The notes under the pieces were generated by a model, which searched no databases, had not been told where the DNA came from, and was given only the letters and a program-made list of their open reading frames with translations. From the NCBI GenBank assembly GCA_004431415.1, contig QPMI01000181.1, forward strand, positions 1 through 64,000: a stretch of 64,000 nt of DNA, read 5' to 3'. Shown here one piece after another: positions 4,471 to 36,153 of the stretch. How positions within the stretch are numbered: position 1 is the first letter of the stretch; each line of letters begins with the position of its first letter. Origin of the DNA: Cyanophora paradoxa CCMP329. Its lineage: Eukaryota; Plantae; Glaucophyta. The position numbers and the translations under genes are program-made.

Positions 4471-4499
4471 TTTAATATATAAATATAGATAAAAGAAGA

Positions 4500-5487: not shown

Positions 5488-5540
5488 ATTAAGGATCATT
5501 GGTAGATTTTTTATGTTGCAGTATAATAAAAGAGAATATA

Positions 5541-6955: not shown

Positions 6956-6969
6956 AAAGATATACAACA

Positions 6970-7751: not shown

Positions 7752-7778
7752 AATTATCTCTCATTCTAATAAGATACA

Positions 7779-12327: not shown

Positions 12328-12518
12328 GTTTACTCAAAAGTGGACTCACAGTTGACTCAAATTTATCATAAAAGACCCAAACAGTCTTTTATTTATGGTT
12401 TATTTATCGATTAGGTTGACTAAGTGGGGGAGTTGACTCATTTTTTCACAGATTCTAAAAGAGGACTCTGCCCTAAAAAGAAATAAAAAGTGCCTCAACT
12501 CCACCCACTAAGTCAACC
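12328..12518. repeat. Iteron-like direct and inverted repeats (GTTGACTCA/GTTGACTAA), candidate origin, copy 1
   Basis: GTTTACTCA, GTGGACTCA and GTTGACTCA at 11-12 bp spacing right after the helicase stop. Imperfect inverted repeat 12414-12437 vs 12494-12518 around an AT-rich spacer. Confidence 0.7.
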
Positions 12519-12569
12519 AAAAAATGATTTAAGAGATAGAAAAATATATTTATATGTAACTAGTAAGAA

Positions 12570-12920
12570 ATGGCTGGAACAGATCATGATTCTGGATCGA
12601 TCTATATGATTGAGAGTCAGGAAATGAACAAAGTCTACATAGGAAGAACCTCACAGCCACTTCAAAAAAGATGGAGACAACACAAATCAGGTCAAATGCC
12701 ATCTACAGCAGACCTATGCAAGGCTTCTGATGTGAAGTTCTCAGTCCTGTATTCAAGTAAGAAGGGTGGGCATGAAGACCTAATGAACAGAGAAGCATAT
12801 TACATGTATCTCTTTGAACCTTGGATAGTCAATTTACAAAAACCGAAATCCCGATTTAGGATTAATAGGTTTTTGCGATTCCATTCAGAGGAAGCCAGTG
12901 GATCCATTAAAACATTTTAA
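12570..12920 (+). CDS. GIY-YIG endonuclease
   Basis: GSIYMI...VYIGRT...RWRQH...REAYY...N pattern. Confidence 0.8.
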   Translation: MAGTDHDSGSIYMIESQEMNKVYIGRTSQPLQKRWRQHKSGQMPSTADLCKASDVKFSVLYSSKKGGHEDLMNREAYYMYLFEPWIVNLQKPKSRFRINRFLRFHSEEASGSIKTF

Positions 12921-12980
12921 ATTGCGTTTAGAACATCCTAAAATAAAATATCCCCTTAGAATAGGAACAAGTTAGGAATA

Positions 12981-15900: not shown

Positions 15901-16226
15901 ATTCAAGAATGACCCCAGGTAAATACAAAAATGAAATGCCAGGTTCTGCTATATTAGAATATGTGGGTCTGAGAGCCAAAGTTTACAGTTTCAGAACTGC
16001 TGAGATTGAGAGAAGTAAGCTCTCTGGGACTTCCACTGAGGAACTCCAATTTAATGATTTTAAGCAGTGTTTATTTGCAGGTATCAGCAAGACTGTGACT
16101 GCAAAGCAGAAAAGAAGGGCAGATCACACAATAGTAGACACTGTGAGTAGAAGGGTTGCCCTGAACTGCTTTGATGCAAAGAGATACATCTTACCAGATG
16201 GTATTAATTCTGTTCCTTTTAATTAA
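12981..16226 (+). CDS. polB: Maverick/Polinton-type family B DNA polymerase with Zn finger and endonuclease VII-like insert; exonuclease motifs degenerate
   Basis: DANNLYG, KLMNNSIYGK and FHDTDS polymerase motifs; CYLC...RDHDHHTG...ACRNCN Endo VII-like domain; CDTC...H zinc finger. Intact 1081-aa ORF. Confidence 0.92.
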   Translation: MPRITNKLIREKKWELMGLLGTLYAAHEITEAEYDREIDLIAKGRPTLARLTRKANNLYDKIETLDELDRLRQIEPEAEDGTAMNELYRWLTYRARREVVVDVIEFLDRIATSLPNRLKQGLDQFRAIKVRLSFICKFVKVSNPQVWISKYIYSDYFVLTRSRNIRTELNKAAQMCQEQMNVVDSYRLERIEILRVAIMSYAPTGGCFLQTPEWIARKRATVNIRNIDDSCFENAILASIYRKSINSHKRNELSQYRKWKYSPIAYNPLALNFDNIPFPVACDAEIIDKFEAQNAGISINIFGIDGEVVYPLHQSSNPGRKHKVNLMLIFDDEGNGHYITIMSLSRLLKVNHETYNDQKLHYCDTCLSRFRSEAKLTAHVDSNRCIDWRLSKGITPKPETTIEFGLKNLRKTVWLPVVVYCKIEHRSIPIDASKSKREVSAVNLRVVTGEDVQDFRFEGQDPMGGLFECLESKARELIDFLFTNIPMNELTDEQKAIYRATKNCYLCSERFTKENFKCRDHDHHTGHYIAPACRNCNLHRRISKQTKVAVVVDQMDDCGTFIFRKIAGLGDKKRIEILSKNFDQYLSLQWGLYKFIDASNFMDFGAADVTELMNKFQAFRRLSHSVYGLDPVHYVSAPGLSWDAMLRTTKAKIELISDVEQYEFVERGIRGGFATMPCRYAEADGENSHIMLFDANNLYGYCLSQPIPVGDFRWETEFNPQDNRSSFLEVDLDYPIRLFLDHSDFPLIINKKIVEYAELSQYQKSLLDLSGEELDKTPKLTATFGSVTNYVISEPLLQYLLDKGVKLKKVHRVLSFTVAPVMKPYIELNTEMRRKAVNKFEADFYKLMNNSIYGKCIESCRGRSVVKIANSEKLFMKYAASPLVKSTSPINERAVAFEFYTKHVKLDKPVAIGAYVLDAAKLHNYQFFYDTVRSQWSKAKLLFHDTDSFCLYIESHTLQKDLGNISYALDLGGDSRMTPGKYKNEMPGSAILEYVGLRAKVYSFRTAEIERSKLSGTSTEELQFNDFKQCLFAGISKTVTAKQKRRADHTIVDTVSRRVALNCFDAKRYILPDGINSVPFN

Positions 16227-16229
16227 GAG

Positions 16230-17615
16230 ATGCCAGCAACTGGAAGAATAGTTAGGAGAACCACTGAGCAACTGCAAGGTAACCTACTGCCTATCACAAT
16301 TCCAAAGGAGGAAAAGGGGGAATCTCGAATTGTTAAAAAGTCTGAAATGAAAGAGCTTGTCCCAGTAGAGATCCCAGTTGCCATTGCAGTGAAAGAAACT
16401 AGCAAGATTGCCAAGAGATTCTATGATGTGAGAACTGGTTACAAAGGGCTTCAAGCTATGAGGGCTGAGTTACCTGATGAATCCTATAAGCAGTTGCAAG
16501 AGTTCTATAAAAAACAAGAAGTTGTTCAGATCAATGCACCTGCTATATCTAGGAAGAGAGATCCCATGGTCCCAATTAGGCAACCCCTTGATACCTATGT
16601 GATTGATTTGCTCTTTTTCCCAGCTTATAAGAAACAAAACAATGGCTATGATACATTTATGACTGCAATGGAATCAACACTGAGAACTGGGTATATTATA
16701 CCTATAAGAGATAAATCAGCTCTCACTACATTGGCTGCATTTAAACAGCTTGAGATGAGAGTGGCAAGACCAATAGTAAAGGTTCAATCAGATGCTGGAA
16801 GTGAGTTCCAAAATCGAATATTCCAGGAGTATTTATCTAGTAAATTCATAGAACACCAAGTGAGTGGAACTGCTGACCACAGAAGCCAAGGTCGAATTGA
16901 AGCCTTTAACAAGCAGATTAAGAGACTGATCACAAACTACTGCATAGCTAATAACACAGCTAGATTCTTTGATGTGTTAGGTGATATTGAGTATAATTAC
17001 AATAATACAGTTCACTCAGCTACTAAGATGAAGCCAGGCGAAACTACAGAGGAGCATTATAGGTATATAGTGGGATTAGAAGATGAAAGATTCAAGAAAT
17101 CAATAGCTTACCTTGATACCATGCAGCCTGGCATGTTTGTTAGAGTGAAAGTTGAGAAGAACCCCTTTGCTAAACAGGGTAACAATTGGTCTAGGATGGT
17201 TTACACTGTTGATAGTAGGGAAGGCTTTAAATTTAAGCTAAGGAGTCCCACTGGAGAGATCATAGATAACAGGTTTGCTTTCCATGAGCTGTTGCCTGTG
17301 AATGCAGTTGAGTATCTAGAAACACCTACAGTGGATGCCTTGGAGCAAGCTAAAGAGGAAGCTAGGGTTGATGCTGCTATAAGGAGAGAGGGCATAGAAG
17401 CTGCTAATGAAGTCCCAGATAAGCCTTTGATAGAGGCTAGAAAGGAGAAGGCTGGGAAAGTTAACAGGGAACTCAAAAAGCTCACCATAGCAGGGACACA
17501 GAAACTTTCAGAAGTGAATAGCCAGAGATGGTATAATGACTTTCAGACTACTAAGGAGTCATATACAGCTCCTAAACCTCAAAGAACACTAAGAGAAAGG
17601 ACCAAAACTAGCTAG
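16230..17615 (+). CDS. Retroviral-type (rve) DDE integrase
   Basis: YVIDL, QSDAGSEF and GRIEAFNK (D-D-E); YNNTVHSAT; Polinton-like C-terminal VRV...WS...Y.V...ELL. Confidence 0.93.
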   Translation: MPATGRIVRRTTEQLQGNLLPITIPKEEKGESRIVKKSEMKELVPVEIPVAIAVKETSKIAKRFYDVRTGYKGLQAMRAELPDESYKQLQEFYKKQEVVQINAPAISRKRDPMVPIRQPLDTYVIDLLFFPAYKKQNNGYDTFMTAMESTLRTGYIIPIRDKSALTTLAAFKQLEMRVARPIVKVQSDAGSEFQNRIFQEYLSSKFIEHQVSGTADHRSQGRIEAFNKQIKRLITNYCIANNTARFFDVLGDIEYNYNNTVHSATKMKPGETTEEHYRYIVGLEDERFKKSIAYLDTMQPGMFVRVKVEKNPFAKQGNNWSRMVYTVDSREGFKFKLRSPTGEIIDNRFAFHELLPVNAVEYLETPTVDALEQAKEEARVDAAIRREGIEAANEVPDKPLIEARKEKAGKVNRELKKLTIAGTQKLSEVNSQRWYNDFQTTKESYTAPKPQRTLRERTKTS

Positions 17616-17913: not shown

Positions 17914-18547
17914 CTTTACTTCGTTCGCCGTGAAACTTGAAAAGTAAAAACAAAACGCGGTTTTTTCTAGATTAATGCTGTACCCGTCTAGAAAATCAAT
18001 ATTCACGTTTGCTACGATATCTCAACACCAACTTATCAAATCGATGCGCTTAAAACGTCATAAAATCGAGCATTTCAAGGCGGTCACAGCGCTTATGAGC
18101 CATATCGGAATTTCACTAACTGTAACTCCAAATCGCGATGAAACCGATTTTGAATTTTGATTTTAAATTCGATTAAAATCCATTAAACGTGAGTTTTTAA
18201 TATAGATCACTAGGAAGTTATCAAATCGATGCACTGACGGTCGAATATAATCCCATATATCATACATAACAATAACTTGCAATCACATATACGAATCGCA
18301 ATGTGTATAGATCGCTATTACGATTAAAGCGAGTTTTGAAATTCAAAATTAATTCGATTAAATTCGATTATAACTCAAAAATCGCGATTTATAACCATAT
18401 ACTTATCGTTTCGATCAACTTATGATATCGAATATTCAACTATATTATATTGCTTCGATAACCGTGATTACATATGTGGAACCATCAATCTAACACTGCA
18501 TTTAGTAAGCATCTGCCCTAGATTCCCCCCATTACCCTATTATTTAA

Positions 18548-18982
18548 GTGGACTCAAGGTTGACTCATATTAATCGTAAAAGTAGTAAAAGTATATGGAT
18601 TTTGTTACGAATTCAATGCAAGGGTTGACTAAGTGGGTTGAGTTGACTCAAATTTCACAGGAAATATTTGGGACCTAAAGTTTTCTAAAAAGGATTTGAA
18701 AAAATGTGTCAACTCCCCCCACTTAGTCAACCCTGACCATAAACAGTAAGGATTTGAGCTAACATGTATCACAAAGTGAACATTTTGAGTCCACTTAGAA
18801 GATCCACTTTTGAAATCCAAGTTGATTTTGCTTGAAATTTCAAAGTTGATCTAAAAGTGAGTCCACCCTGATTGATTATGGTAACAAAGTTGACTAAGTT
18901 GACTAAGTTGAGTCATCTTAAGAAATTCAAAGAGACTAAGAGTTCAAAATGTTTATGAAAAGTGAGTCAACTTAGACCACTT
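18548..18982. repeat. Iteron-like GTTGACT repeats of element A, copy 2 (subterminal)
   Basis: Same arrangement as 12328-12518. Inverted repeat GGTTGACTAAGTGGGTTGAGTTGAC (18623-18647) vs GTCAACTCCCCCCACTTAGTCAACC (18708-18732), with more copies to 18982. Confidence 0.75.
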
Positions 18983-19029: not shown

Positions 19030-19259
19030 GATTTAATCGAATTTATTGATATAATTCCGATTAGATTCATTTAGGATTCAATTAAGATCAATCGAAGTTA
19101 TTGATATAATTCCGATTAACTACAATTAAGATACAATATCGATTAATCGAGTTTATCGATATAACATCGATTAAATTAATTGAAAATGCATATAAAAATA
19201 CGAAAATTCATGTGAAAATTCAAATAAATTAATCGATTTTATTGATATAACATCGAATC
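19030..19259. repeat. AT-rich subterminal repeats GATATAA-N3-CGATT
   Basis: Four copies (gatataattccgatt x2, gatataacatcgatt, gatataacatcgaat). Confidence 0.6.
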
Positions 19260-19332
19260 ACACATATGAATATTCATATTTTAATCCTGAGGCGGAACGC
19301 CGAGGGATTAAAATATGAATATTCATATGTGT
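19260..19332. repeat. Terminal hairpin of element A (28-bp perfect stem, 17-nt GC-rich loop)
   Basis: ACACATATGAATATTCATATTTTAATCC (19260-19287) is the exact reverse complement of 19305-19332. Confidence 0.92.
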
Positions 19333-20082
19333 TTCTTTAAACTCATGAACAATGCAATTTACGGTAAATGCTTGGAATCTTGCAGGGGTCGCTCAACTGT
19401 CAAGATCGCTAACAGTGAGAAACTCTGTAAGAAATACGCAGCAAGTCCGCTTATCAAAGCGACCAATGTATTAAACGAGAATGCCGTTGCCTTTGAGATG
19501 TATTCGAAGCATGTGAACTTAGATAAACCCGTAGCAATTGGCGCTTTCGTTTTGGATTTTGCGAAACTACATAACTATCGGTTCTTCTATGATGTAGTAA
19601 GGAAGAAGTGGGAAACCGCTAAATTACTGTTCCACGATACCGATTCGTTCTGTCTTTTCCTGAAAACCAATAATCTGAACGAAGATATGAAAGAGATAGG
19701 TGAGTATCTCGATAGGAGCAATTACGATAAATCCCATCCTCTCGTGAGTATCAAAAACCGCATGGTTCCAGGTAAATATAAAAATGAGTTCCCAAATGCA
19801 AAGATCATGGAGTATGTGGGTCTGAGATCGAAACTCTATGCTTTCAGAACTGAGACCAACGAAAGAGTAAAGATGTCGGGGACTTCCTCGAAAGAGGTTC
19901 ATTTTGATGATTTTAAGAGATGTCTGTTCGAAGGCATCATAAAAACAGTATCAGTAACAAACAAGCGAAGGCAAGACCACAACTTATATGACTTGGAGAG
20001 CAGAAGGGTCGCTCTAAACCAACTCGATAGCAAACGGAAGATATCAGCCGACGGCATTCACAGCATTCCATTTGGTCTTTAA
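19333..20082 (+). pseudogene. polB: 3' fragment of element B polB, interrupted by element A
   Basis: FFKLMNNAIYGK...FHDTDS...YVGLRSKLY, collinear with the C-terminus of ORF 12981. Homology starts at the hairpin end. Confidence 0.9.
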
Positions 20083-20267
20083 TATACTTGCTCAATACTT
20101 CTCTTTTTATTTTTTCGATCTCCAAGTAGCAGCAAACCACGGATCAGATGCAGCAACCATATGCACCTTAAACCGGGGTCATTTGGATCGATCGCAAAGT
20201 AGTTTGGTTTCGGGTGTTCTGTCCAAACCGGCTCGTCCATTATTAATATATTGAAAATAAAGTAAAG

Positions 20268-21566
20268 ATGCCCTCAGCACAGATAGGATTGCGACCCATT
20301 CCTAAAATCGTAAAGAAGAGCATGAAAGAAGACCAAGGGAACATGCTACCGATAACCATTCCGGTCGAAGAGAAGAACACACGAATCTTAAAGAAGTCGG
20401 AGATGGTTAAACAACTGATCCCGGAGGCATTGCCTACTGAGACTGTAACGAAAGAATCGAAGATCGCGAAGAAGTTTTACGATCCGCGCACAGGTTACAA
20501 AGGTTTCGGGGCAATGAGAAAGGAACTACCAGAGGAAGACTACAAGAAGATGAGAGAATGGTATGATAAACAGGAAGTCGTTCAGATAAACGCACCGACC
20601 CTTTCAAGAAAGAGAGATCCGATGATTCCGATTCGGCAACCTCTCGATACCTACGTAATCGATCTGCTCTTCTTCCCAGCATACAAGAACCAAAACGACG
20701 GATACGATACGTTCATGTCCGCGATGGAATCTACCTTACGCACGGGTTACATCATTCCGATGAGAGATAAGAGCGCTCTTACGGCGCTTGCGGCGTTTGA
20801 ACAGCTACAACGAAGAGTTCCTCGACCTATCGCACGCGTTCAGAGTGACAGCGGAAGCGAGTTCACAAATAACATGTTCACGAATTACCTTGCTAAGAAG
20901 TTCATAGACCATCAGATAAGCGATGTCGCAGATCATCGAAGCCAAGGTAGAATCGAAGCGTTTAACAAGCAGATCAAACGATTGATCACGAACTATTGCA
21001 TAGCAAACAACACAGCGCGATTCTTCGATGTATTGGGAGACATTGAGTATAACTATAATAATACCATCCACTCAGCAACCAAGAGAAAACCAGCAGAAAC
21101 GACGGAAGATCATTACCGTGAGATTATCGGATTAGAAGATGAGAGGTTCAAGAAGTCGATTGCTTACTTGGATGGTATCAAACAGGGTATGTTTGTGAGA
21201 GTGAGAATAGAAAAGAACCCATTCGCTAAACAAGGTGTCAATTGGTCACGAATCGTCTATACTGTCGAAGGGCGCGAAGGTTTCAAGTTTCGGTTGCGAA
21301 ACCCGAACGGCGAAATGGTCGAAGGGAGGTTTGCTTTTCATGAACTGTTACCTATCAAAGGTGTTGAGTATCACGAAGCGCCCACAGTGGATGCACTCGA
21401 ACAAGCGAAAGAAGAAGCCCGGGTCGATTCGGCGATTCGCAAGGAAGGCATCGGAAAAGCGGATGATGTTCCAGAAGAACCGCTATTACAAGCCAGATTA
21501 AAGAAAAAAAATAAAATTACAAGAGAATTAAAGAAACTTGCAATAAATGGAACTGAAAAACTCTAA
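20268..21566 (+). CDS. rve DDE integrase of element B
   Basis: YVIDL, QSDSGSEF and GRIEAFNK; long stretches identical to ORF 16230. Confidence 0.93.
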   Translation: MPSAQIGLRPIPKIVKKSMKEDQGNMLPITIPVEEKNTRILKKSEMVKQLIPEALPTETVTKESKIAKKFYDPRTGYKGFGAMRKELPEEDYKKMREWYDKQEVVQINAPTLSRKRDPMIPIRQPLDTYVIDLLFFPAYKNQNDGYDTFMSAMESTLRTGYIIPMRDKSALTALAAFEQLQRRVPRPIARVQSDSGSEFTNNMFTNYLAKKFIDHQISDVADHRSQGRIEAFNKQIKRLITNYCIANNTARFFDVLGDIEYNYNNTIHSATKRKPAETTEDHYREIIGLEDERFKKSIAYLDGIKQGMFVRVRIEKNPFAKQGVNWSRIVYTVEGREGFKFRLRNPNGEMVEGRFAFHELLPIKGVEYHEAPTVDALEQAKEEARVDSAIRKEGIGKADDVPEEPLLQARLKKKNKITRELKKLAINGTEKL

Positions 21567-23101
21567 TTTCTGATAAATGCGCCCGTTACATCGACTCTCA
21601 TAGTCGGAGCATTTATATATACCAATGGATAAATACGTATATATCGTGTTCTCAATGGATAACCTATGTAAAATACATCGTTTACCGAAAGTGGGAACCC
21701 CATAGCATATGATACATCCCCAGAGTTATAAGCATTATTTATATTCTCACATACAAACATTCTATTCACACCCTCATACTTGATAAATGACCATGAAACC
21801 CCATCTTGCGAGGTCGCAACATTGAAAGTTTTAATAAACGCAGCCGTTATACCTGAACCATATGCAATTATAGAAGCGATTTCATATGTATATGGGAATG
21901 CTATTTGCAGATACTCTGTTGGCGTTTCCCATACTCCGTTTATTGCGGATGCATTCGCTTCCCATCCAGTTAATGATGGGCGGGCTTTAAATGCCTCCTT
22001 TCCGAATTTCGCAGATGAAGCGGTAAACGCATTATCCGGCAGAAGATACCAATTAGCATCGATGGGGGGTATGTTATTCAGAGTGGATGATATATAGAAC
22101 CTTACAGGGTTCTTAATCTCGTAGTTTGTTACGAGCAAGTCGCAGAGTCTATTAATCATGGTGTCGTTTTCTTCAATATACGTTTCAGTTGCCGCGATCA
22201 TGTCCGGAATCTTAGAGGTATCATCGAGAGAGTTTAAGATATCTTTTGGAAGCGGAACAGAGAGCCTGTAATATCTTGCATATCCTTGGTCATCATTATA
22301 TGGTAAAAACTCTTGCATCTTTTCAAGAGCCGACAGTTCACTTGCAGCCATTAGCATATTGATTAATGGACTTCCTGAGGTGGAAGCAATCCACGAGAGA
22401 ATACCCCAGGTATTCACGTTCTCATAAGGATAACCGACGTTTGATGCGTCCGTTTCATTTACTTCACCGCACGAGATGCTAATAACTATAATATCGTCAT
22501 CGTTATCATATATCTTTTTCGCGTGACTGTAACCACAAACGCTTGGGTTATTGTTACCTGATATTGCGCCATCAATTAGACACATCCCGTCGTAATCGAC
22601 AGGAGCAAAATATGTCGGAGCAGCCGAGGTGGATCGCGCCGCAATCTTACTTGGTATGGTCTTGTAATCGTTATCGTTTGCTATAAAAATGGGTTTCATA
22701 CTCACTGTGTCGAATGTCGTAATAACCACGTCTTTTAGTGAATCTTTTATGAGAGCTTCCCCAGTCACAGAGAGAATGGCTGTCTCTAATGGTGTTACGT
22801 CGTATTTCGTATTAAAAAGGGCATTCTCTATGATGTTTCGCGGATTCGCAAAGATCAAAGGGAGATGGTAAAGGTAAGTATCGTGAAGGTCGGTCGCAGT
22901 TAGTTTAGGTTCATTGGGAAATTCGGGATTTTTCACATTGAGACCGATAGCAATAATACCGCCTGTGGATGTTCCACTTACGAGATCTACAAGATCGATC
23001 ACGCGTTTACCGGTTCTTGTTTCGATCTCTTTTAGCAATCTTGTTATGATGATACCACGAGCGCCACCTCCGGACAAAGATAATACGACTTTTAGGGGCA
23101 T
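21563..23101 (-). CDS. Patatin-like phospholipase fused to discoidin (F5/8 type C) domain
   Basis: GGGARG oxyanion motif, GTSTG nucleophile, SAAPTYF and DGA; C-terminal AFTASS...EYLQI...SQDGVSW...TRYIRIYP...MRVD. Confidence 0.9.
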   Translation of the reverse strand: MPLKVVLSLSGGGARGIIITRLLKEIETRTGKRVIDLVDLVSGTSTGGIIAIGLNVKNPEFPNEPKLTATDLHDTYLYHLPLIFANPRNIIENALFNTKYDVTPLETAILSVTGEALIKDSLKDVVITTFDTVSMKPIFIANDNDYKTIPSKIAARSTSAAPTYFAPVDYDGMCLIDGAISGNNNPSVCGYSHAKKIYDNDDDIIVISISCGEVNETDASNVGYPYENVNTWGILSWIASTSGSPLINMLMAASELSALEKMQEFLPYNDDQGYARYYRLSVPLPKDILNSLDDTSKIPDMIAATETYIEENDTMINRLCDLLVTNYEIKNPVRFYISSTLNNIPPIDANWYLLPDNAFTASSAKFGKEAFKARPSLTGWEANASAINGVWETPTEYLQIAFPYTYEIASIIAYGSGITAAFIKTFNVATSQDGVSWSFIKYEGVNRMFVCENINNAYNSGDVSYAMGFPLSVNDVFYIGYPLRTRYIRIYPLVYINAPTMRVDVTGAFIRN

Positions 23102-23149
23102 CTTTACTTATCTTAAATTTAATAAATCTGTATAAGTAGAGCAAGCAGG

Positions 23150-26100
23150 ATGAGTTTCAATTATCCAGCAAATTTACAGACAGTATCAGGTGGTGGTAAA
23201 GGGAACCCAAAACATGTGAACTTTGATAATATCACCATTAAAGGGTCGGCTTCTATTGATCAGAGCGCGGATAAACCCTCGAAAACTCATCCCCGGGTTC
23301 ATGCTTTATCGGTGAACCAAACGGATCCTGATAAAGAAGATGTTAGCATTGCTTTCAGTTTGGGCAATGTTAAAAAAAACGCTGTTGCAGAGATCAAGGC
23401 AACCAGAAGGAGACCACGGAAACTTAAAACCAGTGGAACGCATCCCGATATTCCCACACGATTCGATAGCGGACGTTTGGTTTTCAACGTCCAGGATGAG
23501 AAGGGAGTTCATCGTAGCGGTTTGAGAATTTATAATGAAGGATCAAATACGATTGCACAAATTCCCCAGATTTTACAGGTAGCCCCACATGGCGAAGAGA
23601 ATCAGATTCGCCACACCAACAGTATTTATCCGAAGGACATCGTCGAAAATGCAGAAACTAATGCACTGTTTGGTTTCACTCTTCCACAGGATACTTCCAA
23701 AGAAAAAGATTCAATCACGGTCGACAGTAGCCCCAGTCAACCAGTAGCCATTCATTTACACCCCGACCTTGTCGAAATGGATAGGCATTTACTACCTTTG
23801 AAAACAAATACCAAAGACCTTGGTATTAGAACCCGACAGTGGCGAAATATTCACGGTAGCAACGTGTATGCAAACGGTGAGAAACTTGTAAGCGAGAAAA
23901 CTATCAGAGAAATATTCGAACATTACGGACCTGTTCCGGTTCCGTTTCCTCTACCATGGGATCCGCCAGATCTTACACCAAAGAAGCAACCAGGAAGAGA
24001 GTATACAGCAGAAGAGAACGTTGCATTTGGGCAACATATCGTGAGTTGGGAAAAAGTTCGAAACAAACCAGTATTTACAGTGTATCAACCACCAACAGAA
24101 GAGCTTCTTGCACCAGATGTGAACGTTATACCTCTTGAAGATCGACGATTCGAAGAAGATAATGAGTTACCTGATGGTTTCGATCCAAACCTTATAACAT
24201 ACGATCGCTACGAACCATATGATGAACAGCTTTTACCTGATGGATTCGCACCCGATCTATTTGATTTCATTGTTGATTGGGAGGACATCCGAAATAAACC
24301 CCAAACATATCCACCTGATCCCCATGCTCACGATTGGGACGAAATAGAGAACAAACCTGATAGATTCCCACCTGTGGATCATAGACACGATTGGGAGGAT
24401 ATCGATGGAATACCAGAAGAATTTCCACCAGAAGACCATAGACACACTTGGGATCAAATCGATGCACCAGAAGAGTTTCCACCAGCACCACATAGACACA
24501 ATTGGAACCAAATCGACCAGCAACCTACATTCGCATCAGCAGGTGATGCTGTCAATGATGGGCTACATGGTGTGAGTCTCTATAAGAATATAGACACAGA
24601 GGAAAGATTAATGTTAGATACGTATTACGTCAATCGTCACGGAATAAATGCAGGCACCACAATGGAAGGCGAATTATATATCAGACCACCTACACGAGTT
24701 AATTTAGTTGCAGCAGGTGGAGGTATTGGAGTAATGCAGAATAAACCGGGCATCTATCTAACAAGTTACTACCCAGATGACATCCCGATGACAGTTACAT
24801 TACCACCTATCCCATCTCTTCCAGCCGATCCAATTAATTTTGTAGACAAAGATGCAGCAATCCAAATTAACGTTACTGATGTAAGCGCTCTTGATGGATC
24901 AAGACCAAAGTTAATATTTAGTCGAGATCGGCTCTTACCTGATGATTTAATTGGAGATCGAGACGATTATAAGCAATGTGAGATAGGGTGGATTAAAACC
25001 AATTATAATGATGTTGATAAGCAAGGGGTCTTGGAAATCAATCAGAGAGCAGCAGCAAAAAACATACACAACGAAACAATATCACGAGTGGTCACAGAGG
25101 ATTATTTAGAAAACAAGAATTACATAGATGGAACCGAATTAGCTACGGCTTTGCTTCCTTTGGCGGCAGTTTCAACTGTCCAATCTTGGTTAGGTAACTA
25201 CCTTCCCTCACAGGTGGAACCATAACAGGTAATCTGACAGTCAATGATACATTGAGTGTAGGTAAAGAGATACACCTAAGTGGAAATCAGTTCGAGAGAG
25301 GATCCCAAGATTTCTCTACATATAATCCAAGGGAAATAGCAGATTGCCTACTTCACTTTAACGCAAACTCTGATAATTGGAAGAGTGGAGCGCTTGTTTA
25401 TGAACTCAAAAATTACGCAAGGGGCGGCTCAGTTTGGAATTATATTAATGTAGTTAACACTCTTGTTAGTTACGGCAGTGTTACTTTCAGCTTCCTCGGT
25501 CCAAATAGTAAAAAGTTCTACCAGGTGGCTACCACAAACACATTTTCATTCATCAATTATCAATATCAAACTTCTACTCTTTATGATACTATTCCTTTCA
25601 GCGGAATTACGGTCTCATTTGTCATTCGATTTAAACCAAGCGTTCCAAATGAAACAGTTTTACGAATCGACGGCTCAACACATGTGAATGGAAACAATCT
25701 CAGTTGGTTGATTACTAAAACAAGCGGGTATTTGAATGTCAATAAGAATGGCTACGATTTAGTGAGCATTCCAATATCAACAACAGAAGGGAATTCTTGG
25801 ACAATGTTCGATATTCGAGTAACAAGCACAACTGTTCATTTTGGTGTAAATGGAAAACATAGAGATACAATATCTGTTCCTGCCGATTCAAGATATCCAC
25901 GCCAAGATGTCAATAAAATACATGTGGGTGATAGCGTTTCAAAATTCGATTTATGCGAACTCCTTTGTTATGGTAGAACCCTTTCAGATACAGAACTACA
26001 AAATATTAGATGGTATTTACAGCAAAAATACGGTTTTCCGGAAGACCCTTTAAATCCATATCCATTGGATAACAACAAGATTCTTGTTAGAACTAATGAG

Positions 26101-29100
26101 TTTAAAGTAACCGGCACCCTCTTGGCGACGAACGTTATTATGACTACATCAACCTCAGGCACAGTATCGACTATGAGCCTTCAAGAAAAAACAAATAGCT
26201 TGGAAGAGAGTATTTATACACAACAAGAGGCAATTACAGCACTCCAAACTGAGGATGCCGCACTTGCAACAAGAATAAATAACATAGAGAGTGATTATAC
26301 TTCTTCTAATGTGGTTCAAGAATGGACAGCACCTTTAACGGCATCGAATGTAGTTCAAGAGTGGATAGCACCATTGACTGCATCGAATGTAGTTCAGGAA
26401 TGGATTGGACCTTTAACAGCATCGAATGTGGTTCAAGAGTGGATTGCGCCATTAACTGCATCGAATGTGGTTCAAGAGTGGATAGCACCTTTAACAGCAT
26501 CAAATGTGGTTCAGGAATGGATATCAGATTACTTACCTCTCACAGGAGGGACACTGTCAAGTAATCTTACCATCTCGGGTAATCTCAAAGTGTCAAGCAA
26601 CATTCAATTAGGAACTCATGGGACGGTTTTAGATGTGACTTATGACACACCCTATTATCCTATCACATCCAACACTGACCCTGCATTTACAATTCCGAAT
26701 TGTCTTATAGCTGCAAAACCATCTGGCTATGCCCATCTACAAAATGGGCATGGAACAACGATCACCAACCGAGCAACATTGGCTGTTCCATTCATTCCAC
26801 AATTTTTTATGACTGGTTCCTCACGGGAATCATACTATAAAATAAATCCATTACTAAATAACCAACTTACTTTGAAAGCATCTGACAACCCCAATTCATC
26901 CATTCATTTGTTTTCAAACAGAAATGATACTGTGGATTGGAGTGAGGGAATAACAATATTTAGTGTGTGTAGTGTGAGGTCACTTACATTGGTCCATGCA
27001 GTGTTTGGCGTGTTTAATTATAATGTGCATGAAGTAAGGTATGGCACACACATAGATTGGTTTGTGAACCCACCTGTTTGCAAATGGGGCATGAATAGAT
27101 ATGTCCATGTTGCTGATGGGGTTAACATGCAATATGGAACACCAACATATAGTAATCTCCCAACTGTCTATATGCCTTATGAGGAATATGCAAATTACAA
27201 ATTTGCATACTGGGACACAACCATTACTTCAAACAGCATATCATATTCAATGAATGGGAAGCATTTAGGAACTGTTGCTGGTAACTGGCTTCCACCATCA
27301 TCATTTAATAATTTAGGACCTGCAAATATTGGGGAGAGTTTGCAGAACTACTTGTTTTCAATAGAGCCTTGACCGAGATTGAGAAGCAACAGGTGAGGTA
27401 TTATATTCAGCAGATGTATGGATTTCCTATAACTCAACCTCTTTACTATCCTGATAATATGCGAATATCAGCAAATTATCTCTATCTAAACAACTTACAC
27501 ATTGGTTCAAATGCTATCATTCCAAACTATACCACATCAAATGTGGTTCAAGGTTGGATACAGAACCACACACCTGCGTGGTCAAATATCACAGATAAAC
27601 CATTAACTTTTGCTCATGATGCTCATTCTCACACAAAGTCAGAGATAACAGATTTCGCCCATTCTCACACAAAGTCAGAGATTACAGATTTTGCACACAC
27701 CCATTTATGGGCAGATCTCACAGACAAACCGCTCACGTTTACTCCTTCTGCGCACACTCACACAAAATCACAAATAACAGATTTTGCCCATTCTCATACG
27801 AAGTCAGAGATTACAGATTTTGCACACACCCATTTATGGGCAGATCTCACAGACAAACCGCTCACGTTTACTCCTTCTGCGCACACTCACACAAAGTCTC
27901 AAATTACAGATTTCGCCCATTCTCATACAAAGTCAGAGATAACAGACTTTGCCCACACTCATTTATGGAATGACATCACAGACAAACCATCAACGTTTGC
28001 CCCTTCTGCGCACACTCATGATTACTTGCCTCTCACAGGAGGAACAATTTCCTCAAATCTTACGATTTCATCCAACTTGAATGTTATAGGAAAAATTCAA
28101 ATTGGAGACAAAAATACAAACATTGATGTATACTATGACGCACCCTATTATCCTGTTACTTCTAATACAGACCCCGCTTTTGCCATACCAGATTGCCTCT
28201 TAACAATAAGATTAGATGTTGTCCCTGTCGGCATAAACATCAGTCACGCCTTTATTGCAAATAGAGCAACTACGGCAATTCCCTTTATTTCCGGGTAACC
28301 TTCCCATGGTCAGGATACAACACAATAACTCAATTGAGATCTGATTACAATAACCGAAACATTGCCCAACAACCTACTTATTCATATACAAGCCGGGAAT
28401 TTGGAATGCCGTATCCCGTAACTGTGGATTGGTCAAAAGGTATCACCATCTTCTTTGCAGGTTCTTATAGATTTTGGGGACCGTGGGTAGATCTCTTAAA
28501 TTTTAGTTCACCAGATGGAACTAATAAAGTATCCTTTGGGACAACAGGTAGCAGTATGGGTATACATTCTTATACAAGCAATGGTGTGACTTACCCAGCA
28601 GCACACTTAAATTATCCCACATCGTATTCTGAGTTGTCGCCGAATCATTGGGACTTTACAGTTTCTTCAAATGTCTGCACTTTCGGATTTAACGGACAAG
28701 ATTTAGGCACAGTCATTACAGAAGTGGATTATCTTCCACCTTCCACTTTTAGTAGGATGGGTGTTGCCTATTTCATTACGGCAGTAGGGGAATATATTAT
28801 ATTCAACAGAGCATTGACATTTGATGAAAGGCAAAAAGTGAGATATTATATGCAAGATTATTTTGGCTTTCCAAAAAAGCAAACAATCGTTATTCCTGAT
28901 AATCTACGCATTTCTGCTGAAAATGTTCATATTAGAAATTTAATCGTTTCTTCAAATGCAAGCATTCCAAACTATACCACATCAAATGTGGTTCAAGGTT
29001 GGATACAGAACCACACACCTGCGTGGTCAAATATCACAGACAAACCGTTAACGTTTGCTCCTGATGTTCATACTCACACAAAAGACCAAATATCAGACTT

Positions 29101-30879
29101 TTCCCATTCTCATTTATGGAATGACATCACAGACAAACCGTTAACCTTTGCTCCTGCTGCCCATTCTCATTTATGGAACGACATCACCGATAAACCATTA
29201 ACCTTTGCTCCTGATGCTCATTCTCATGCATGGACAACCATTACAGGTAAACCATTAACCTTTGCTCCTGATGCTCACACTCACACAAAGTCTCAAATAA
29301 CAGACTTCGCCCACAATCATTTATGGGCGGACATCACAGACAAACCGTTAGCGTTCACTCCTACTACTCACACTCACACAAAGTCTCAAATTACTGATTT
29401 TGCCCACACTCATTTATGGGCGGACATCACAGACAAACCGTTAACATTTGCTCCTGCTGCTCACTCTCATTTATGGGCGGACATCACAGACAAACCATTA
29501 ACATTTGCACCTGCTGCTCATACTCATGATTGGATAGGTATTACAAATAAACCTTTGCTGTTTCCGCCCGATGCTCATACACACCCTTGGAGTAGTATAA
29601 CAGAAAAACCATTAACATTTCCGGCAACAGCTCACACTCATTTATGGAATGATATTACAGACAAACCAACATTTGCAACTGTTGCGACAACCGGAAATTA
29701 TGATGATTTAATTAACAAGCCAACATACACAGCGCCCACAAATTTTGACGCTACAAGTATTATTTCCACAGATCGCACAGGTGATTGGAGAAATTACAAC
29801 GGAGGAATATTGACAGGGGACACAAATACTTGGGCGAACACATGGGCTGCTTCTGATGAAGATTGTAGTAGCTGTAAAATGTATTGGAATGTCCAACAGG
29901 AATGAAATCTTGTTATATCTATTATGCTTGTCATTACAATTGTAGATACTTTGATGTGGTGGGAATTTATCCTCCAACAACTGTGTATACATATTTACGA
30001 GTAAATGCCTATTCTACTGCAATCGACCCATCAAAGGAATTCAAACAGTATGTTGGAATAAATTGTGAAGGACTAACCAAAGTTGGTGTTCATGGACAGA
30101 AAGGAAGAATTTATTTACCCGGTCCAATTGCTGTTGGATGGAGCAAAAACCCTGCTGTAACTTCACACAGTGGTTACTGTCATTGGGATAATATCTTCGG
30201 AAAACCAACAGCTTCAACATCTGTCGGTCCTCACTCACACAGCAAAGCAGATATCACAGATTTTGCACATACTCACACAAAGGCAAATATTACAGATTTT
30301 GCCCATACTCACACTAAATCAGAAATCTCAGATTTGCCTTCTTTTGATCCATTCACAGCCAATACGATCACAGCAAATAATACTATGTATGTAGGATCGG
30401 GTTCAATAGTAACTCCTGCATCACCCACAAACCAAGAAACATGGTTCTTCCACAATTCCGCAAACTTTTATGATAAAACACTGCTCTGTCGTGGAAATGC
30501 TTATGCAAGAGCATTTTATGCGATGAATGCAGGAACCACAAACACAATCAGCCAAGTTCCATCTTGGTATGATATAGAAAGACGTTTCAAATCAGGAAAA
30601 TATCAAGCCACAAGTGGTGTTATAAGCGCGGGTCAAACAACACAGCATGCATATGTTTTATATTGGGACCCACCTTTTTACACTCAGACACCTGTTGTAA
30701 ATGCCACACTTCAAGGAACTCCTGCAACAAACCCAGGGGATGTAGATTTTAGAATTGGAATCTCAAACTCCACAGCTAACTACACAACAATCTATGTGAC
30801 ATTCATAGCATCCCCTACTCTATCTGAAAGTCGAAGTATCACATGCACTATCCATTGGACATGTCATGGTATACCATAA
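23150..30879 (+). CDS. Giant fibre/spike-like protein (about 2,570 aa if joined; split into ORFs 23150-25225, 25252-27372, 27369-28298, 28334-29905, 29884-30879)
   Basis: Tail-fibre-like HxHxWxDITDKP and HxHxKSxITDF repeats, YLPLTGGT motifs, and three LamG/ConA-like modules. Adjacent ORFs join by single frameshifts near 25206, 27335, 28293 and 29886. Confidence 0.7.
26300..26525 (+). repeat. 39-nt coding tandem repeat (APLTASNVVQEWI, about 6 copies)
   Basis: Visible in both DNA and translation. Confidence 0.85.
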
Positions 30880-30928
30880 TTAACTCACAGATCGCTTTAT
30901 TTTTCTAATCTTCTTAGTAAAAGAAGCA

Positions 30929-31774
30929 ATGGGTGAATACAACCGAGTCCAATTACCGGTTTACGCATTGGGTGCGCCCGCAATTCATTTCAGACAACAT
31001 GAAGTATCCGATGAGATTCGTGGTATGGAATCAACAGAACGCGCAAACTCAGGAAATGCGTTCGATAAAAACAGTGTGATTCGCGTAAAAGAACTACGAG
31101 CCGATAAGAATTCGGGTGTGGTAAAAACAACTCAATTATTGGTTACAAATGCGAATTTTCAATCAGCAAACGGAGAACCCGATGCGTATGGTGTAGATAT
31201 CAAAGCATTCCAATTCGACAATACGCGAGCCGCCGCCGTTATCCGATCAGGAGGCGCTGTTATTGGTGGTGGATGCCGAGTATCCGGAATGCTTGGCTCT
31301 TCTGCTGCGTTTAACGATATTCCGGACACCTTACCTGAACATGCAGATAATCCCCAACGAATGCGTATGTTTCTTCCATGTGGAGATTCCCCATATGCTT
31401 TTGCTATCATACGAGCAAATGTAAATATAAATGATGCTACCCAACCCCAAGGTATTGACGGACCTTGGAAAATGGCTGATCAACTTTTACCGAAAGCGAT
31501 TTACTCCATGTGTCGCTCTCAGAATGGAGGTGTAGAAGGATATACATTCATTGTTCAAGCGGTAGGTCATGGAGGGCGTGGATGGGTTATAAGAAATCCT
31601 GCAACACAACCCAACACTTTTGATTTTTGGGCATCTGAGGTTGGAGGTTATGATATTATGATTTATGGATATCGTAATGATGAGGCGGCATGGGCTGTTG
31701 CTAACTGCATAAATCCCGATGCTCAACTATCGAATTTCTATAATGAACCATACCCCGAAGATCCCGTCCCATAA
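30929..31774 (+). CDS. Hypothetical virion-associated protein, paralogue 1
   Basis: Intact 281-aa ORF; shares ELRxDxNSGVVKTTxLLVTNANF with the next gene. Confidence 0.7.
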   Translation: MGEYNRVQLPVYALGAPAIHFRQHEVSDEIRGMESTERANSGNAFDKNSVIRVKELRADKNSGVVKTTQLLVTNANFQSANGEPDAYGVDIKAFQFDNTRAAAVIRSGGAVIGGGCRVSGMLGSSAAFNDIPDTLPEHADNPQRMRMFLPCGDSPYAFAIIRANVNINDATQPQGIDGPWKMADQLLPKAIYSMCRSQNGGVEGYTFIVQAVGHGGRGWVIRNPATQPNTFDFWASEVGGYDIMIYGYRNDEAAWAVANCINPDAQLSNFYNEPYPEDPVP

Positions 31775-31793
31775 TTATGTTTCGATATATTAA

Positions 31794-32698
31794 ATGGCTG
31801 CACCTGCACCACCTGAACGCATCTTAACTGCGCAACTATCGTTAGCTGCGCCCGCAAACCACGTATTACAGCATGCTATTATCGATAATATCGATGGTCT
31901 CGAATCCACAGAAATCGCACCAACTCTCAATACCTTCGGTGATACTCATATGCTGAGACTGAGAGAGTTGCGATGTGACACCAACAGTGGAGTGGTGAAA
32001 ACAACGAGACTTCTTGTAACAAATGCGAACTTCAACGCTCATTATGGAGATCCCGACAGTTACAATGATGATAATAAGGTTACCAACTTTGCTTACGAAG
32101 CAAGAAGGGCGCAATTAAATGTAGATCCGGAGGCGCTTATATTGGGGACGGACTAAGAGTTGGTGGTATCATTGGAGCGCCTCTAATCGTAAATGACCAA
32201 CCCAATCCTGATGATGAAAACACGAGAATTAGAACGTATTGCCCGGGTATGAATGAACCTTACATTATTAAAATAAACACGATTATAATAAACCTGCAAA
32301 CTGCCGTAATTGACATAATAGAACCGCTGGGAAACCATTACAGATATACCGAAAAGCTACCTGCGGATATTTATGCATTATGTAGGAGAACCGATGTAGC
32401 AAGACCACGTATTACAGTTCAAGTAGTCCCCGTCGATAATTTTGGTCTTGCTTTCCATTCATTGCCTCTTTTGGATACGCAAGATGATGAATATATAATT
32501 AGGGCAACACAACAAGGAACATTCACGGTTATTATGTATGCCGAAAGAAACGATGCAATCGCAAGAGGAAACCGCTATGGTCAATATCTAACCACAAATC
32601 TCTATAATCCATCGGCGGTAGCGATCCGCTACCATAAATCTACGGTATATATAGAGGAATGGATGAAAAAACAAGGAGATTTATTGAGTCTGCGATAA
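31794..32698 (+). CDS. Hypothetical virion-associated protein, paralogue 2 (frameshift near 32120)
   Basis: The shifted frame reads RSGGAYIGDGLRVGG, matching RSGGAVIGGGCRVSG of paralogue 1, which joins ORFs 31794 and 32249. Confidence 0.65.
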
Positions 32699-32931
32699 TG
32701 GTTCATGGACTTGATAAGTTTGATTACACCGAAACTGTCTATAAAAAGGCGCAAGAGAAGGTATCTGTGAGATGCCTGCAATGTAATAAAGTCTTTCAGA
32801 CTTATGGATTTAACCATATAAAGGGGTCAGGATGTAGACAGTGTTCTAAGAAACACTCTCATGCATACAGAAAAAAGACTACATGGGGAATCGTAATAGA
32901 AGAGAAACCGATTATGTTATATTTTGATTAG
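32659..32931 (+). CDS. Small zinc-ribbon protein (DUF723-like repeat seen in viral endonuclease-associated proteins)
   Basis: FIESAIMVHG..KFDYTETVY...CLQC...HIKGSGCRQC. Confidence 0.6.
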   Translation: MDEKTRRFIESAIMVHGLDKFDYTETVYKKAQEKVSVRCLQCNKVFQTYGFNHIKGSGCRQCSKKHSHAYRKKTTWGIVIEEKPIMLYFD

Positions 32932-33117
32932 AGTTTCGAAAGAGAAATGAGCATCTTTCCGCATTTACCTTTGGTTATTATGCAAGTATCAAAGCAATTC
33001 GGACATGTCTTATGATAATGGAGCATTATGATATCGACCAACTCATACGGAAATACTTTCGCTAAGATGGTTCGCATCCTACCAATTTCGTTTTTTATTT
33101 TTCTATATAATTCATAA

Positions 33118-33516
33118 ATGAATCATCGCGGTTCCCATGTAATGTTAGATTACAAGTTCAATCATCCATTGATGGTGGGATTGGAAAACTTGGAGACCAC
33201 AACAACGTGGTTAATGCAATTTTTACAATCTATTATACAAGAGCAAGGTATCCGAGTTGTTCACAAGCATTGCGAGATTTTCGATGGTGGTGTTTCGCCA
33301 CCGGGTTTTGCGATGGTATTACTTCTTGATGAGAGCCATTGCACCGCTCATTGTTACTCTGACCAAGGAATGTTAGCGATTGATGTATTCACTTGCGGAA
33401 CCGAAGCGCAAAGTAAGACCTCCGTAATATCTAAATTGATAGATGAGAGAATAACAGAGATCTTTTCAGGGTTGGAGAAAGCGGAGAAGCAGATAGCAGC
33501 GCGATTTCCGAGTTAA
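33118..33516 (+). CDS. speH: S-adenosylmethionine decarboxylase proenzyme (prokaryotic/viral pyruvoyl class)
   Basis: GSHVMLD start, LLDESHCTAHCY with the E-S autocleavage site, and AIDVFTCG; 132 aa. Confidence 0.85.
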   Translation: MNHRGSHVMLDYKFNHPLMVGLENLETTTTWLMQFLQSIIQEQGIRVVHKHCEIFDGGVSPPGFAMVLLLDESHCTAHCYSDQGMLAIDVFTCGTEAQSKTSVISKLIDERITEIFSGLEKAEKQIAARFPS

Positions 33517-33564
33517 TCACACTGAGATTTTGAAGAAATATAACATGTCTTATTGAATATCGTC

Positions 33565-33842
33565 AGGTGTAACAGGTGTAACAGGTAAATCCCAAACTTC
33601 GCTCCTAGGGAGGCCAAAAACCCAAAACTTTGGGATTTACCTGTTACACCTGTTACACCTTGGGATTCACCTGTTACATCTATCAAACAAAGCATTAATA
33701 TATTCGATTCCTTACATTGATTATAGTGTCATGTAACAGGTGTAACAGGTGTTTCCCAAACTTTCCTCATAGGAGATGAAAAATCCAAAACTTTGGGATT
33801 TACCTGTTACACCCGTTACACCTTGGGATTCACCTGTTACAC
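33565..33842. repeat. Iteron-like GGTGTAACA repeats of element B: perfect 32-bp inverted repeat plus a second diverged copy
   Basis: 33565-33596 is the exact reverse complement of 33629-33660; the unit recurs at 33732-33842. Confidence 0.85.
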
Positions 33843-33848
33843 ATTGAT

Positions 33849-34633
33849 TATCGACTGTTTAATTGGACATGTTACACTTGAAACACAATTTTGATACAGT
33901 AAAAAACAGAATCCAATCTTATCAATTGTTTAATTGGACATAATGCAACTCTGGGGTCATTTTTGATACAGTAAAAATCTCAACCGAATCTCATCGATTG
34001 TTTAATTGGACATAATGCAGTAACCATCTCTTCCAACAAAATACGCCGCAATCTCATCAATTGTTTAATTGGACATAATGCAGTAACCATCTCTTCCAAC
34101 AAAATACGCCGCAATCTCATCGATTGTTTAATTGGACATAATGCAGTAACCATCTCTTCCAACAAAATACGCCGCAATCTCATCGATTGTTTAATTGGAC
34201 ATAAGGCAGTAACCATCTAATCCAACAAAATACGCCGCAATCTCAACGATTGTTTAATTGGACATAATGCAGTAAGGAGTGAATTATTTTCATCCGATAT
34301 TTCATCGATTGTTTAATTGGACATAATGCAGTAACGAGTGAATTATTTTCATCCGATATCTCATCGATTGTTTAATTGGACATAATGCAGTAACAAGTGA
34401 ATTATTTTCAACCGATATATCATCGATTGTTTAATTGGACATAATGCAGTAACCATCTCTTCCAACAAAATACGCTGCAATCTCATCGATTGTTCAATTG
34501 GACATAATGCAGTAACGAGTGAATTATTTTCAACCGATATATCATCGATTGTTTAATTGGACATAATGCAGTAACGAGTGAATTATTTTCAACCGATATT
34601 TCATCGATTGTTCAATTGGACATAATGCAACTC
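33849..34633. repeat. Subterminal tandem array: about 13 copies of a 33-nt core with two recurring linker types (63- and 59-nt units)
   Basis: Core TCATCGATTGTTTAATTGGACATAATGCAGTAA at 33991, 34054, 34117, 34180, 34243, 34302, 34361, 34420, 34483, 34542 and 34601, plus two degenerate upstream copies. Confidence 0.9.
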
Positions 34634-34679
34634 TGTGTGAATTTTTGCGATTTCCGATAGAATGGGCGGTGGACTACTT

Positions 34680-34825
34680 CAATCGTGATTATATCAATCG
34701 TGATTATATCATAAATTTATGTTCCTTCAATCGAGATTATATCAAATTTGCATAAAATACATATTAATCGCGTTTATATCAATAAATTAATCGATATTAT
34801 ATCAATTGTTTAATCGAGATTATTA
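34680..34825. repeat. AT-rich subterminal repeats AATCG-N3-TTATATC
   Basis: aatcgtgattatatc x2, aatcgagattatatc, aatcgcgtttatatc and aatcgatattatatc. Confidence 0.65.
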
Positions 34826-34926
34826 AAATTTAATATAAAAATACATATTTATCGATTAATTTATACATATTTATTAACATGAAAATACATATTTATCGAT
34901 TAATTATACAAATTTATTTAAGAAAA

Positions 34927-35011
34927 ACACATAAAGAAATACAAATTTAAATCCAGGAGCGAAGCGCGAAGCGCGTAGCGGAGGGATTTAAATTTGTATT
35001 TCTTTATGTGT
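34927..35011. repeat. Terminal hairpin of element B (28-bp perfect stem; loop with three GCGNAGC units)
   Basis: ACACATAAAGAAATACAAATTTAAATCC (34927-34954) is the exact reverse complement of 34984-35011. Confidence 0.92.
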
Positions 35012-36006
35012 AACCCAATTCGTTAACCAAACTCGAAACTCAAGAAGTTATTACAGAGTGCGCATTCGCATGCGCTAGCGCTGCAGCTAATATTTATTGT
35101 CCGGCGACAATGCAAATACTCACCTTCAACTGGCCGGCGGCAGGTGCGACTCTGACGGGAGACCTGTCAAGGAGGAGAAGCGGCTTGTAAACGAGCTGTA
35201 CATCAAATCGAACAATCTTGCCGTCCTCGTCATCGCAGAGTCCGCGGCGCTGGTCCTCCTGCTTGCTGTGAATAATTTTTGGGTGAATCCATCGCTGAAC
35301 GCGAGGGAATCTGGGATTTCAAATGCGCTGGCCGGCAAGAATAAAGAAGCAATCATGATATACAAAGGCGAGATATGCAGTCTCCTTGCCTCAAATGGTT
35401 CGTTACCAGCCGGCTGATGTTAATAATCGCGTGCTTAATTTTCATGGTAGACGAGGTTCGCGATGAGTTGGCTTCGGAATTTACGCGTCTCAAGATACAG
35501 ACGGCAATGAAATACAAGGATGAATATCGAGTGTACGAGATCGCCAACTGTCCTCTCCATATGCGTGGCAATATGCACAACGGCAAGATCAAGCCATCCT
35601 CATCGATCGCACCGGTCGACGTTGAAGGTGCCGGAACATATGCAAGGCTACCCCCAGCCCCGGCCATCATAGACAGTAACTACAACGCGTTCGCGTATGG
35701 TGACCCATCGATCGCGAAGAACGTCCGGCATCGCCCTCATGTTAGTGGACCCTCTGCAAATCCTGACCAGCTGCAGCCTCATCATGACGAATAGACCAAC
35801 GGTAGTACTAGTTCGAGTTCAGTGTATTCCTGCACACCTGCATGCACACAATCGACGATCTTCTAGGACGACCATCAATTTTGTTGTTCCTGCAGATATG
35901 TGCTCGCAGCCTCGTGAGCTGTAGCGCTTCTAGATCTGATGTAAATCGACTCGCGATCAGCTATTGCAACTTGTGGATGTGTGTGTGTTGTTTGTTGGGT
36001 AAAGGA

Positions 36007-36030
36007 TGTGTGTGTGTGTGTGTGTGTGTG
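36007..36030. repeat. (TG)n microsatellite
   Basis: Twelve TG units. Confidence 0.9.
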
Positions 36031-36153
36031 GTGTGGTGGGGGTTCAGTGCAAGAGTTCTAAGTGCGTTCGATCCGCTGTCGACGTCGACATGGTTCAACT
36101 CACTTCACACGTACACGCCCCCTGGCCCAGGCCCCCCCGAGCCCCCCCCGCCC

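Follow-up and report, generated by a model that had tools for sequence, protein, structure and literature searches.

What does a GC-rich loop built on three copies of the heptamer GCGNAGC do at the edge of AT-rich DNA? We addressed this question for positions 34927–35011 of the window (the whole 64-kb stretch of DNA analysed), where an initial annotation had proposed an end selected to function as single-stranded DNA, either as a branched cap or as a recognition site for primase, integrase or packaging ATPase.

Layout and genes of two nested elements

The GC content of the window is 31–45% over bases 1 to ~35,000 and mostly ~70% beyond. The ~70% GC part, taken together with its ankyrin-like repeats (read by eye) that are interrupted by short introns, indicates that the host is a GC-rich, intron-dense eukaryote. 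The low-GC part consists of two related elements, A, which starts before base 1 and runs to 19332, and B (19333–35011); their left ends lie outside the window, as do the terminal inverted repeats and target-site duplications, and both elements are incomplete here. By sequence, A and B are identified as endogenous Polinton-like viruses (PLVs). Homology to the protein-primed family B polymerase (pPolB) of B picks up at 19333, directly after (within 1 nt of) the terminal palindrome of A, indicating that A is inserted in B and fixing the end of A within one base. The right end of B, at the 3′ end of the + strand, is placed at 35011 by analogy with A and because the base composition changes there. 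Between this end and the 70% GC host DNA lies a stretch of ~50% GC (35012–36000) with a 139-residue ORF without Pfam or PHROG match, which is possibly an older insertion. Neither end recurs within the 64-kb window.

Element A encodes a primase-helicase (9733–12327, + strand; PriCT_2 and SF3/DUF5906, with AEP-like motifs read by eye), a GIY-YIG nuclease, pPolB (12981–16226, +; PF03175, alignment, structure model and fold comparison) and an rve integrase (16230–17615, +; PF00665 and alignment), together with frameshifted capsid-like, ATPase-like, patatin and fibre-like pieces. Among these pieces are a probable double-jelly-roll major capsid gene (5327–6955, +), which scored 0.94 to Capsid_N clusters with language-model features and had no Pfam match, and a P-loop (ATPase-like) fragment (6970–7750; weak PHROG match). 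The structural module of A (1–8000) is frameshifted and its replication module (9733–17615) intact, reflecting decay or an assembly error; at 1–3554, the patatin-fibre block is present as a copy that is inverted and frameshifted. Element B encodes the C-terminal part of pPolB (19333–20082, +; by homology), cut off by the insertion of A, an rve integrase 74% identical to that of A (20268–21566, +; PF00665 and alignment), patatin, fibre-repeat genes and, as its last gene, S-adenosylmethionine decarboxylase (33118–33516; PF02675). A run of fibre-like genes with His/Trp repeats (23150–30879) matched phage tail and tail-fibre families. No capsid gene was seen in the visible part of B, and no Ulp1-like protease was matched among the 27 proteins of the two incomplete elements.

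Two hallmarks of Polintons were recognized. The polymerase matched PF03175, with phi29-like best fold matches and a terminal protein (TP)-like fold in A, and its C-terminal part was found in B. The retroviral-like integrase matched PF00665 with an E-value of 2e-4 (below the curated cut-off), and its D126, D188 and E224 were invariant in 33 sequences. Compared with 12 relatives, the pPolB of A kept its polymerase motifs and had invariant Cys and His columns, of which Cys231 and His337 are read as a vOTU-like protease pair. Its exonuclease motifs were replaced and ~90 residues were missing, as also in its closest relative P0152; we take the replaced motifs to be ExoI and ExoII and the gap to lie around ExoIII. 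The pPolB of A, although degenerate in the exonuclease, keeps TP-like, vOTU-like, endonuclease VII-like and polymerase motifs. The structure model of A's pPolB had a mean pLDDT of 64 (~80 over residues 80–200), with phi29 polymerase as its best match, and a single-sequence fold of the N-terminus was rejected (pLDDT 32). This N-terminus is seen in A only, as that of B lies outside the window. Residues 84–202 resembled the Y-family little-finger/PAD fold (Z 8.0–9.4, rmsd 2.6–3.5 Å over ~100 residues), a fold reported for polinton terminal proteins in the accessible text of a preprint which also describes the mavirus pPolB as being without exonuclease (bioRxiv 10.1101/2024.03.18.585575). Thus the loss of the exonuclease in A is not specific, and the TP-like fold, with the kept protease and polymerase motifs, suggests that A has likely retained the capacity for protein priming.

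Terminal palindromes, loops and a diverged copy

The end of B is a palindrome made up of an inner 28-nt arm (34927–34954, +; palindrome search and arm comparison), a 29-nt GC/purine-rich loop (34955–34983, +; sequence reading) and an outer arm (34984–35011, +; palindrome search), which is the perfect complement of the inner arm and, given the inferred end position, would form the last bases of B. The loop reads AGGA-GCGAAGC-GCGAAGC-GCGTAGC-GGAG. As the initial annotation had stated, it contains three tandem GCGNAGC heptamers over 34959–34979 (34959–65, 34966–72 and 34973–79), and it is GC-rich within AT-rich DNA, with a GC content of 0.69 compared with 0.21 for the arm and 0.18 for the 250 nt upstream. 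That the heptamers sit in the terminal loop of a Polinton-like element was likewise borne out. The loop can also be read as five GNA triplets (34956–58, 34961–63, 34968–70, 34975–77 and 34980–82) separated by symmetric linkers (GC, GCGC, GCGC, GC). On the + strand of 1–35011, GCGNAGC occurs four times in all, three of them in this loop, and at least three heptamers appeared in 11 of 2,000,000 shuffles of the loop; the three heptamers are not due to chance. A contig of sequencing run X9 is identical to the window over 34946–35005, and in 4/4 runs the outer arm is linked by contigs to the downstream flank, showing that the loop is no assembly error. We regard the end of B as real, non-random and likely functional.

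Element A ends in a palindrome (19260–19332, +; palindrome search) with perfect 28-bp arms at 19260–19287 and 19305–19332 and a 17-nt loop. The GGCG-GAA-CGCC motif that had been set beside the heptamers of B is present at 19291–19301, within this loop, but it is a single hairpin closed by G-C and is not GCGNAGC, a form taken by three of the three units in B and by none in A. The arms are 28 bp in both elements, though they differ at 7 of the 28 positions, with each of the seven differences compensated on the opposite arm, and the opposite strand of both ends reads 5′-ACACA. Each arm of A contains a perfect 16-nt palindrome (19264–19279), whereas the arm of B has only an 8-nt one.

Each end has one 73–85-nt terminal palindrome plus AT-rich repeats. 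The latter, found by repeat search, lie just inside the palindrome of B (34677–34870, with an AATCG..TTAT core), and similar ones lie at 19032–19259 in A. Two inverted iteron-like blocks were also found near the end of B (33552–33841; repeat search) and, differing from these in sequence, at 12338–12518 (directly after the primase-helicase gene) and 18546–18732 (near the end) of A, the latter two being 69% similar. We infer that these blocks are candidate internal origins; primase-helicases acting on nearby inverted repeats have been proposed (PMC11296320, accessible text). The subterminal region of B further contains a tandem array of 59–63-nt units (33914–34629), with very high summed depth at the array edge. 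An Rfam scan of 33400–36100 gave sub-threshold miRNA matches at the iteron hairpins only, and none at the terminus.

Sequencing runs provided a related copy of the B end. Sixteen runs among those listed contain at least half of the words of 30900–35400, and none of the runs listed that contain these words is an RNA run. In each of four runs compared over 34600–35400, a 158-nt contig of a diverged copy was present, with the differences assigned by matching depth. The copy was read up to ~30 nt from the contig end, which places 34982–34983 and the outer arm outside the reading, and it differs from B at three loop positions, 34955 A>T, 34962 A>G and 34969 A>T. The first change makes the outermost loop pair T·G, as in A. 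The other two, which fall in heptamers, both hit the free N (3/21 × 2/20 = 0.014 by hand, for one event in runs that are not independent). The initial annotation had named loops that vary freely and lack GNA in related copies as evidence against it; since the one diverged copy keeps GNA in both changed heptamers, this objection does not arise. Two more 28-nt arms, alike at their ends but differing in the middle, were read from loose ends; as they could be inner or outer arms, they were left out of the count of strand polarity. Relative to the downstream flank, the depth was 3–7× for the inner flank and 1.2–2.1× for the diverged copy (piece depth, not a copy count), and these ratios suggest that there are several copies.

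Alternatively, the heptamer triplet might be a neutral slippage expansion in a merely foldable loop, or the palindrome an end-repair accident. Three near-identical 7-mers do resemble the product of tandem expansion, a shorter loop suffices in A, and a preprint on such palindromes mentions accidental annealing as another option in its accessible part (bioRxiv 10.64898/2026.07.28.741278). However, two diverged elements share arm length, conserved arm ends and strand polarity, the heptamer changes of the variant are at N only, and the loop is a GC-rich island within 18–22% GC DNA. We therefore consider a neutral origin very unlikely.

The initial annotation also proposed counting GNA-triloop hairpins at the termini of related elements, and no such motif was seen in a distant set of 45 loci from 42 IMG/VR contigs (0/45; best segments 23–39% identical), a weak result, as most of these loci are incomplete and assemblers trim hairpins. 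A pattern of both arms with a free loop gave four matches in the window (two ends on both strands) and none in either viral_contigs or metagenome_contigs, and a degenerate loop pattern gave 0 in viral_contigs. No close relatives by integrase were found in viral_contigs or metagenome_contigs; close integrase homologues were P0001 (77%, on a 2.3-kb contig) and a fragment, P0014. Loci L005, L028 and L040, which have long end repeats, were rejected as such ends because they have no perfect-armed palindrome of at least 13–14 bp there. In L021, a distant integrase-bearing viral contig, hairpins of ~53 nt occur in both orientations at 13–65, 2997–3053, 8402–8462, 10974–11030 and 15222–15274; they were likewise rejected, as they recur internally and have AT-rich loops.

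Predicted fold of the two loops

When the loop of B is folded at its centre, the 13 mirrored positions give seven Watson–Crick, five G·A and one G·G pair with a C-GAA-G tip, and the seven mirrored positions of A give four Watson–Crick pairs, one T·G and a tandem G·A/A·G (two positions) with a G-GAA-C tip. Because Watson–Crick, T·G, G·A and G·G account for all mirrored positions, a single rod tipped by one GNA can accommodate both ends. This mirrored-pair test, the criterion for which was chosen after the sequence was seen, was passed by 513 (B) and 6,603 (A) of 2,000,000 shuffles, and GNA was present in 23 of the 350 strand-cases of triloop hairpins (4-bp stems) in 1–35011. Only one of the strands offers a working GNA motif, in line with the proposed single-stranded function: on the other strand of both loops, the mirrored non-canonical positions become C·T, C·C or C·A and the tip becomes TTC.

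The 85-mer of B has a predicted folding energy of −32.1 kcal/mol (z −12), largely due to the arms. For B, a nearest-neighbour model, which underrates mini-hairpins, gave −32.1 kcal/mol for the rod, −24.3 kcal/mol for an open loop and −22.7 kcal/mol for three mini-hairpins. The branched cap suggested initially was not favoured by these results as the main fold, since A has a single hairpin, the loop of B is mirror-symmetric in G·A, and the energies are −32.1 compared with −22.7 kcal/mol. The main fold is probably a single rod, zipped by G·A pairs and capped by one GNA. The flanking GGA/GGA of B would suit a guanine zipper extending the stem, as GGA against GGA forms the guanine zipper of satellite III (PMC11014236), and structures have been solved for GNA-bracketed intercalated duplexes (PMC6061790). 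In both motifs, GGA/GGA or GNA/GNA gives a non-canonical duplex of the purine strand only, as here, although the accessible texts describe them in satellite III and model oligonucleotides and not at viral ends.

The fold of the B loop into three separate 2-bp mini-hairpins on a four-way junction, which would be compatible with any of the functions considered below, is doubtful but keeps a real chance. All three heptamers have the GCGNAGC form, whose stability is not explained by current folding models of this type (PMC13037366, accessible text), and several small GNA hairpins are used at Streptomyces ends. In addition, both heptamer changes of the diverged copy are neutral for three mini-hairpins, whereas in the rod that we favour 34962 A>G would convert A-T to G·T and so counts against it. 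Both predicted folds would require single-stranded DNA and would favour the + strand, which carries the 3′ end of the element. By sequence, a GNA-capped fold-back on the 3′-ended strand is found at 3/3 ends seen (A, B and the diverged copy).

Possible roles of the folded end

Terminal palindromes of endogenous virophages and PLVs have been described together with a hairpin-priming model, and for the way in which polintons and PLVs copy their ends and pass them to the integrase, panhandle and hairpin-priming models both stand as proposals (bioRxiv 10.64898/2026.07.28.741278, accessible text). As in the Halocafeteria-type elements of that work, the palindrome here forms the extreme end of an endogenous preplasmiviricot that encodes rve and, for A, adjoins the insertion junction, no more than 1 nt from where B's pPolB is broken; a role of the hairpin in replication has been proposed there. 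The Halocafeteria-type palindromes, however, are mostly found with non-pPolB replicases and with a gap limit of 10, whereas the present elements have pPolB (A also a primase-helicase) and loops of 17 and 29 nt. The main text of that preprint, on which the comparison is based, has no mention of GNA, triloop or loop, in contrast with the strand-specific, G·A-coded loops seen here, and the Halocafeteria palindromes may have GNA tips too. The combination of a palindromic PLV end with a GNA/G·A-coded loop was in no paper found, nor was any literature on polinton with triloop or virophage with mini-hairpin, in a search that took in few subscription papers. Beyond that preprint, the titles and abstract openings listed showed no further work on ends of this kind. 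Thus terminal palindromes of such viruses are already known, and a strand-coded G·A/GNA loop on pPolB elements was not found described.

The role that we prefer, to which we give somewhat less than an even chance, is that the B loop is the tip of a terminal palindrome whose 3′ fold-back protects the 3′ end and templates TP-primed synthesis. The 3′ end would become single-stranded in the free genome, either as the displaced strand or as an overhang after synthesis from an internal primase-helicase origin, and would snap back locally, with no need for the far end. The folded 3′ end would resist nucleases, and TP-pPolB would open the fold, start on the 5′-ACAC repeat and patch or copy the end, so that GNA would stay on the same strand. 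A short terminal repeat such as ACACA is of the kind used in slide-back priming. We favour this protected fold-back because the strand polarity, the perfect arms and the retention of the TP domain can all be explained by it. Against it, we know of no need for a palindrome in typical polintons with the same pPolB domains, and the paired 3′-OH of the fold could equally self-prime. The ends of A and B and the one variant come from one organism and are related, and so are not independent evidence.

In hairpin self-priming, the folded 3′-OH would prime its own complement, leading to hairpin-closed ends and rolling-hairpin replication, and the integrated palindrome would be an opened hairpin nicked 28 bp from its tip. 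The fold does set the 3′-OH on a paired base beside its own template, perfect arms with seven compensated differences would be automatic if one arm were copied from the other, and such priming has been proposed for the Halocafeteria elements. Parvoviruses, viruses with a linear single-stranded DNA genome to which the Halocafeteria preprint draws an analogy, have a 3′ fold-back at the end and an HUH nickase; the fold-back is shared, but no HUH nickase was matched among the 27 proteins of the incomplete elements. Moreover, the pPolB of A keeps a TP fold and protease motifs, and the TP domain would be idle. Self-priming with hairpin-closed ends usually inverts the loop, whereas GNA lies on the 3′-ended strand at 3/3 ends and no strand-changing joint was present among those listed in the four runs, although this last argument is weak. 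Self-priming is, in our view, somewhat unlikely.

Mini-hairpins of the GCGNAGC type, the same heptamer as in B, act at the G4 origin, RSF1010 ssiA/RepB′ and N4 vRNAP promoters, in single-stranded DNA only; these known sites are single hairpins at internal origins or promoters, and no ends of eukaryotic viruses are named in the accessible text (PMC13037366). By analogy, the folded end might mainly be a recognition site for primase-helicase, integrase or packaging ATPase, as the initial annotation had considered. A encodes a primase-helicase and both elements encode rve, GNA hairpins assist the RepB′ primase and the N4 virion RNA polymerase, and the constant 28-bp distance from junction to loop would fit an enzyme footprint. 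However, A and B have loops of different length (17 and 29 nt) and sequence and a variable tip N, against 74% identity of their integrases, and the conserved letters are in the arms, making a mainly recognitional role distinctly unlikely.

The protected fold-back that we prefer has a parallel in Streptomyces telomeres, which show that such a design works: 3′ overhangs capped by GNA are nuclease-resistant there and provide the template for TP-primed patching (PMC5449611 and PMC7205883, accessible text). The two systems share a linear replicon with a terminal protein and, on the 3′ strand, fold-backs (predicted here) that carry a GNA cap and sheared G·A. The Streptomyces ends are bacterial, with 5–8 small packed palindromes over ~180 nt, Tap/Tpg and no B-family polymerase, whereas the present elements have one long palindrome, a TP fused to pPolB and an integrase; the likeness is an analogy, not homology. 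A fuller version of the parallel, which we consider unlikely, is a Streptomyces-like replication in which the primase-helicase would fire from internal iterons and the proofreading-dead TP-pPolB would only patch the G·A-zipped, GNA-capped 3′ fold-back ends. If true, an integrating virus of eukaryotes would have arrived by convergence at a telomere of bacterial style. The 85-nt strand-coded end beside a TP-bearing polymerase offers a small defined substrate with which protein priming could be separated from self-priming in vitro. Terminal palindromes can thus go with pPolB, and screens for palindromes that allow only a short gap may overlook ends of this kind.
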